From: Escherichia coli
GTDB lineage: Bacteria; Pseudomonadota; Gammaproteobacteria; Enterobacterales; Enterobacteriaceae
Length of the DNA stretch: 37,730 nt
Assembly: GCF_003334785.1 (NCBI RefSeq)
Contig: NZ_QOWV01000026.1
Direction: 5' to 3' (one strand)
The first letter of the stretch is position 1, and every line of letters starts with the position of its first letter. This document shows positions 14,123-14,466 of this stretch, in pieces. The position numbers were made by a program, and so were the translations under genes. The notes beneath the pieces are model-generated. The model did not search any database and was not told the DNA's origin. It saw nothing but the letters and a program-made list of their open reading frames with translations.

Positions 14123-14466
14123 TGTTGCTCTCCTGTGGGCTTAAAAAGGAAATTATAGACTACGTGAGAAACAGCACGAGGATAAGCAGGATATTCCGAA
14201 TAAAATCCGGCGAAAATATTACTTCTGCACTTAAATTAAATTCCCACAATAGATTACCGGGAATATATAACCCAAAAGATATTGTATCAATATTAATCGG
14301 ATCATACCAATCACAATCCCTATGAATATCATGGTGTTAAAATATAAAAATCATCAACCAGGACTAATCTTAACAACGAAGCGGCAAATATTTGCCATGC
14401 TGAATGTGCTTTATAAATCTGCGATCCGTAGCAGACACCATAAATACACAGACACGGAGAATCACT

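Follow-up and report, generated by a model that had tools for sequence, protein, structure and literature searches.

RcsB-type boxes in the divergent osmC and bdm-sra promoter modules of Escherichia coli and their conservation in related genera

RcsB homodimers recognize the box TN(G/A)GAN4TC(T/C)NA, defined structurally by Huesa et al. 2021 (PMC7913699), and they typically bind immediately upstream of the −35 element, with osmC a named target (PMC5651002). In Escherichia coli K-12, an RcsB box has been reported at the osmC promoter osmCp1 (Davalos-Garcia et al. 2001; Sturny et al. 2003). As relayed in PMC3013089, Sturny 2003 found that His-tagged RcsB D56E protects osmCp1 from DNase I and gives no gel shift, and the title of that paper describes independent regulation of osmCp1 by NhaR and RcsB from overlapping sites. 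The two osmC promoters overlap; p2 is RpoS-dependent, and Lrp and H-NS repress, H-NS acting at both promoters (PMC7285182). Gel-shift analysis showed binding of NhaR to an osmC promoter fragment (PMC10157491). The divergent neighbour, bdm, is activated by RcsB on osmotic shock, according to the account of Francez-Charlot 2005 given in PMC3599342, and its promoter also reads sra, besides the promoter that sra itself possesses (PMC10746276). With an Rcs-inducing LolCDE inhibitor, bdm rose 88–139-fold and osmC 9–17-fold, which places bdm near the top of the genes induced by Rcs-activating stress (PMC5105897). In Salmonella, RcsB increased expression of osmC by log2 2.67 and of yddX (bdm) by log2 2.96 (PMC7913699).

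We analysed a 37,730-nt stretch of E. coli DNA (the window) in which osmC and bdm are divergently oriented. Its positions 13600–15000 were matched in 5,414 of 5,426 complete E. coli genomes, where ddpF, osmC, bdm and sra are annotated. The osmC–bdm gap is base-for-base identical to MG1655 1556281–1556624, so the published K-12 experiments on the osmC and bdm promoters apply to exactly this DNA. A first-pass annotation made from the letters alone had described the gap as divergent and AT-rich, and this was borne out: its G+C content is 0.360 against 0.503 for the whole window, and only 4.6% of 344-bp windows are equally or more AT-rich. The coordinates of the genes and of the elements discussed below are collected in Table 1.

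Table 1 Features of the osmC–bdm region (positions in the window)
Feature	Position	Strand	Remarks
osmC CDS	13691–14122	minus	ORF, peroxiredoxin OsmC, 143 aa; annotated osmC in 5,414/5,426 E. coli genomes and MG1655
osmC–bdm divergent intergenic region	14123–14466		344 bp, G+C 0.360
CTATAAT, sigma-S-type −10	14152–14158	minus	Read from sequence; C at −13 plus TATAAT
TAGTCT, candidate −10 of RcsB/NhaR-activated osmCp1	14157–14162	minus	Read from sequence; assignment inferred
TTATCC, −35-like hexamer	14180–14185	minus	Read from sequence; directly abuts RcsB box
20-mer TAAGCAGGATATTCCGAATA of the first-pass annotation	14183–14202	plus	Contains RcsB box and small palindrome TATTC-C-GAATA
osmC RcsB box TCGGAATATCCTGC	14199–14186	minus	Perfect half-site TCGGA, degenerate half-site CCTGC
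Variable central spacer	14216–14335		120 bp, 48% invariant columns, four Escherichia sequences
TCGGATCATACCAA, one-mismatch RcsB-pattern match in variable spacer	14297–14310	plus	Midway between the two boxes
bdm RcsB box CAGGACTAATCTTA	14359–14372	plus	One mismatch (position 1), 7/8 specified positions
Conserved bdm core-promoter block (AACAAC...ATATTTGCCATGCTGAAT)	14373–14405	plus	Invariant alignment columns
Candidate bdm −10 hexamers	CATGCT 14396–14401; CTGAAT 14400–14405	plus	Within conserved block
bdm CDS	14467–14682	plus	ORF, 71 aa
sra CDS	14784–14921	plus	ORF
Intrinsic terminator after sra	14951–14978	plus	12-bp stem, then T run

Compared with MG1655, the whole window showed 99.93–99.98% identity, with one 178-bp repeat unit absent elsewhere in it: at 18344–18555, a tandem repeat between fdnI and yddM has one such unit fewer. 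The remainder of the window carried about 13 substitutions. The most AT-rich part of the window, at about 24190–26740 (G+C down to 0.285), holds yddL, yddK and the yddJ pseudogene and is far more extreme than the osmC–bdm gap. An Rfam search found no RNA family within or near the gap; at 22528–22586 on the minus strand it returned a SECIS_3 match (84 bits), which is the fdnG selenocysteine insertion element at the Sec196 codon.

The 20-mer singled out by the first-pass annotation contains a plus-strand 14-bp core, GCAGGATATTCCGA (14186–14199), which, when read on the osmC strand, is the osmC RcsB box. Six of its eight specified positions agree with the consensus, from which it departs at positions 10 (C, not T) and 14 (C, not A). 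It has the GGA-N4-(T/C)CY core in common with the RcsB homodimer box (Huesa et al. 2021) and the RcsAB box (Wehland and Bernhard 2000). The annotation had called the resemblance to an RcsB site loose; the resemblance itself held up, and with one half-site perfect it is closer than that wording allowed. The motif is the box reported for osmCp1 of K-12, the locus being the same and the sequence identical, with no difference between the two; DNase I protection of osmCp1 by RcsB is attributed to Sturny 2003 in PMC3013089. Protection without a gel shift fits a degenerate box and weak binding in vitro. A consensus match of this kind is by itself no proof, since such matches are not rarer than chance in the window: at up to two mismatches the pattern occurred 260 times against 366 ± 17 in shuffled sequence, and at up to one mismatch 20 times against 35.

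Judged by the predicted promoter elements, the osmC box lies just upstream of, and abuts, the −35 of the activated promoter, which is where reviews place RcsB homodimer sites. The putative osmCp1 −10, TAGTCT, is 17 nt past TTATCC and 23 nt past the box, and it overlaps CTATAAT, which may be the −10 of the stationary-phase promoter osmCp2. A simple sigma-70 scan of the osmC strand returned only TTGATA-17-TATATT and TTGGTA-18-TACAAT, both within the variable spacer; we rejected these as the osmC promoter because they fall outside the conserved modules and their count equals the shuffle expectation.

For the comparison across genera we took 80 osmC loci, one genome per species, and anchored the upstream regions on CTATA(A/C)T, a heptamer present in 75 of the 81 orthologous upstream regions at a distance of 25–60 nt before the osmC ATG. 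An RcsB-type box (up to two mismatches) starts 41 or 40 nt before this heptamer in half of the distinct orthologous promoters (37 of 74), 23 of these boxes having at most one mismatch, and at any other offset a box was found in only 0–8 of the 74. The 37 boxes come from Escherichia, Citrobacter, Kluyvera, Enterobacter, Lelliottia, Superficieibacter, Cedecea, Siccibacter, Buttiauxella and an Erwinia MAG. Within them G4, A5, T10 and C11 are nearly invariant, which is circular given that the motif itself was the basis of selection. In the same motif-selected set, almost no information resides in the N4 spacer or in either flank, so the fixed offset is not accounted for by overall similarity of the sequences. 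In the orthologues the box is followed by a TT-rich, −35-like element (positions 16–17). The half-sites are therefore conserved at a fixed position while spacer and flanks drift, and the osmC motif, abutting a promoter and holding the same offset in orthologous promoters of about ten genera, is more than a chance match. C at position 10 was confined to Escherichia among the 37 boxes, and the Escherichia box is, by sequence, the weakest version. As to the heptamer, a CTATACT resembling a sigma-S-type −10 stands about 30 nt before the osmC ATG, with CTATAAT in its place in E. coli and E. albertii; among the 81 Enterobacterales loci the exceptions to CTATA(A/C)T were five Pectobacterium loci and Pseudocitrobacter faecalis (L028, CTACACT).

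The best match to the RcsB pattern in the gap is not the motif first flagged but CAGGACTAATCTTA, 95 nt before the bdm ATG. The first-pass annotation does not mention it, and its C at position 1 hides it from a scan for the exact consensus. Salmonella enterica subsp. arizonae and diarizonae have exactly this box; Citrobacter amalonaticus has CAGGAGTTTTCTGA, in which both half-sites are kept and the spacer is changed. The block that follows it, ATATTTGCCAT(G/T)CTGAAT, is invariant in the alignment and contains the candidate −10 hexamers; the prediction of Shimada 2014 for the bdm promoter differs (TTGCCA-15-TATAAA; PMC3946193). The bdm box has the same regulator as the osmC box and is built as the same 14-bp pseudo-palindrome; each box lies 23 nt from a weak −10 candidate, and the two candidates (CATGCT for bdm, TAGTCT for osmC) share an A in second and a T in sixth place. 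It is nonetheless a separate site, that of the bdm-sra promoter (Francez-Charlot et al. 2005), serving the promoter on the other strand and with one mismatch to the consensus against two at osmC. Inside the bdm promoter, at 14383–14396, lies a perfect 14-bp palindrome, GGCAAATATTTGCC, with a terminator-like score on the minus strand. We rejected it as an operator or terminator: the palindrome is broken in two Escherichia loci (L001 and L002) and in Salmonella, and only its right half is conserved, which is probably part of the bdm core promoter rather than of an operator.

The centres of the two boxes are 173 bp apart. In MG1655 coordinates the osmC box would fall at 1556548–1556561 and the bdm box at 1556375–1556388. 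Across four Escherichia sequences, 94% of columns are invariant in the osmC-proximal 93 bp (14123–14215) and 89% in the bdm-proximal 131 bp (14336–14466), on either side of the variable spacer. Judging from its absence at the homologous position in L001 and L002, the spacer match TCGGATCATACCAA is probably a chance one. In the C. freundii group, E. albertii, Enterobacter and many others, bdm is not adjacent to osmC; without it, sra adjoins osmC in the C. freundii group (L003–L013) and in E. albertii (L078, 1735–2000). The E. albertii deletion runs from just beyond the osmC box to the middle of bdm, so that the bdm promoter and its box are lost and a 3′ remnant of bdm is left. The osmC box is kept without a neighbouring bdm in the C. 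freundii group, E. albertii, Enterobacter, Kluyvera, Cedecea, Buttiauxella and Siccibacter. The reverse is seen in the two Salmonella subspecies and C. amalonaticus: the bdm box is kept, and the osmC-proximal offset holds no box at up to two mismatches.

These observations bear on whether a single bidirectional RcsB site, the 20-mer at 14183–14202, activates both osmC and bdm. Such an arrangement would agree with the Rcs induction of both genes, and it has a precedent in S. Typhimurium, where Huesa et al. 2021 describe an exact RcsB box in mid-spacer between two extra divergent start sites and assign this one site to both osmC and yddX (PMC7913699). We nevertheless regard it as very unlikely here. 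The motif is 268 nt from the bdm ATG, whereas a better box, conserved in Salmonella and C. amalonaticus, stands far nearer to it; many species that lack bdm still have the osmC box, as does E. albertii, whose bdm promoter is deleted; and the Salmonella scan, which demanded an exact consensus, would have missed CAGGACTAATCTTA. In the arizonae and diarizonae loci (L014 and L015) the osmC–bdm spacer measures 515–519 bp against 344 bp, and the position homologous to the S. Typhimurium mid-spacer box reads TAACATTTTTCCTA in L014. The first-pass annotation had thought shared control of the two genes plausible. Both are indeed Rcs-induced (PMC3599342, PMC5105897, PMC7913699), but control of the two through the one motif that it flagged is not supported, bdm having its own box; with each box occurring without the other in other species, shared control is right for the regulator and wrong for the site.

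A second alternative makes the motif primarily an operator for NhaR, a LysR-type regulator, its likeness to an RcsB box being incidental. The overlapping sites named in the title of Sturny 2003 and the binding of NhaR to the osmC promoter fragment (PMC10157491) speak for it, as do the Escherichia box being the most degenerate found, its lineage-specific flank GATTTTAT and the palindrome TATTC-G-GAATA. Against it stand the good RcsB boxes at the same offset in about ten genera, the RcsB D56E footprint on osmCp1 as reported second-hand in PMC3013089, and the reporting of the NhaR and RcsB roles as coexisting rather than alternative. The NhaR consensus TCgaAAAAatCtA, poorly defined according to its source paper, had no match at up to four mismatches anywhere in the gap. 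We searched for a T-N11-A dyad near the osmC −35 and found none, the sole match in the gap being at 14401–14413 on the bdm side. An NhaR operator in place of an RcsB box is thus most improbable.

The Lrp consensus YAGHAWATTWTDCTR, reportedly that of Cui et al. 1995, had no match in the gap at up to three mismatches; the NhaR and Lrp scans proposed by the first-pass annotation therefore gave nothing above background there. The high-affinity H-NS motif TCGATAAATT, said to come from Lang et al. 2007, matched once in the gap at up to two mismatches, that is, 2.9 per kb against 1.4 per kb in the window, a difference that is not informative. The gap is nevertheless AT-rich as expected of an H-NS-silenced region, lying in the lowest 4.6% of 344-bp windows. 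The bdm/osmC spacer was bound in genomic SELEX with the RpoD holoenzyme and flagged HNS (PMC3946193). The gap had been put forward as a typical H-NS target, a suggestion that its composition and the published binding and repression uphold (PMC3946193, PMC7285182), and to which the consensus scan adds nothing above background. Action of the stress regulators NhaR, Lrp and H-NS on osmC agrees with published work (PMC10157491, PMC7285182). A third alternative is that the consensus match arose by chance in an AT-rich spacer coated by H-NS, no specific regulator being involved. Although compatible with the lack of RcsB-pattern enrichment in the window and with the HNS flag (PMC3946193), it is in effect refuted by the fixed offset in diverged promoters with information-free flanks and by the footprint and genetics as far as PMC3013089 and PMC5651002 relate them, and its probability is negligible.

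Very probably, then, the gap is the known divergent control region of K-12 osmC and bdm-sra, made up of two independent promoter modules with a variable AT-rich spacer between them. Its anatomy, its identity to K-12, the fixed-offset conservation and the separability of the modules were computed here, and binding and regulation are taken from the literature. The osmC module (~14145–14215) would combine the sigma-S-type −10 CTATAAT, for stationary-phase osmCp2, with the RcsB box TCGGAATATCCTGC upstream of a weak −35. A phosphorylated RcsB homodimer would bind this box weakly and so turn on the sigma-70 promoter osmCp1 under envelope stress; NhaR, at an overlapping site, would bring about induction of osmC by Na+, Li+ and osmotic conditions, and Lrp and H-NS would repress. 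In the bdm module (~14336–14466), the bdm-sra promoter is preceded by a separate and stronger RcsB box, CAGGACTAATCTTA.

On its box the phosphorylated RcsB dimer would most likely contact RNA polymerase from just upstream of the −35. Its exact placement depends on the −10 with which each box is paired, which we infer from the hexamers present. If the −10 is TAGTCT at osmC and CATGCT at bdm, the box would be 23 nt upstream and centred at about −42.5. The alternative −10s, CTATAAT and CTGAAT, would put the centre near −47, like that of Salmonella yciG (−55 to −41) and near that of Salmonella ytfK (−50 to −36). A position 36–55 nt upstream of the start resembles both of these Salmonella sites. 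Most other genera show only CTATACT as an evident −10, and for them the −47 geometry is favoured.

The RcsB site of osmCp1 is already established for this exact sequence, and recognizing it in the window is correct but ordinary: the locus is a textbook-level convergence of RcsB, NhaR, RpoS, Lrp and H-NS on one small promoter, worked out in K-12 between 1996 and 2005. The comparison adds that the two RcsB boxes are evolutionarily independent modules and that about ten genera have the osmC box at one fixed position. It also shows that a genome scan demanding the exact consensus, like the one run on Salmonella, would overlook both E. coli boxes as well as the conserved bdm box. The cross-genus picture and the degeneration of the box specific to Escherichia have apparently not been described before, as far as we have checked. 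We offer only tentatively, as a doubtful extension, that RcsB control of osmC may be ancestral in the Enterobacteriaceae, with the box fixed 26–27 nt from the sigma-S-type −10, and that the Escherichia box may have been secondarily weakened, by changes of T10 to C and of A14 to C, as control by NhaR was added on the same DNA. If this is true, RcsB would work on the same core promoter that sigma-S uses.
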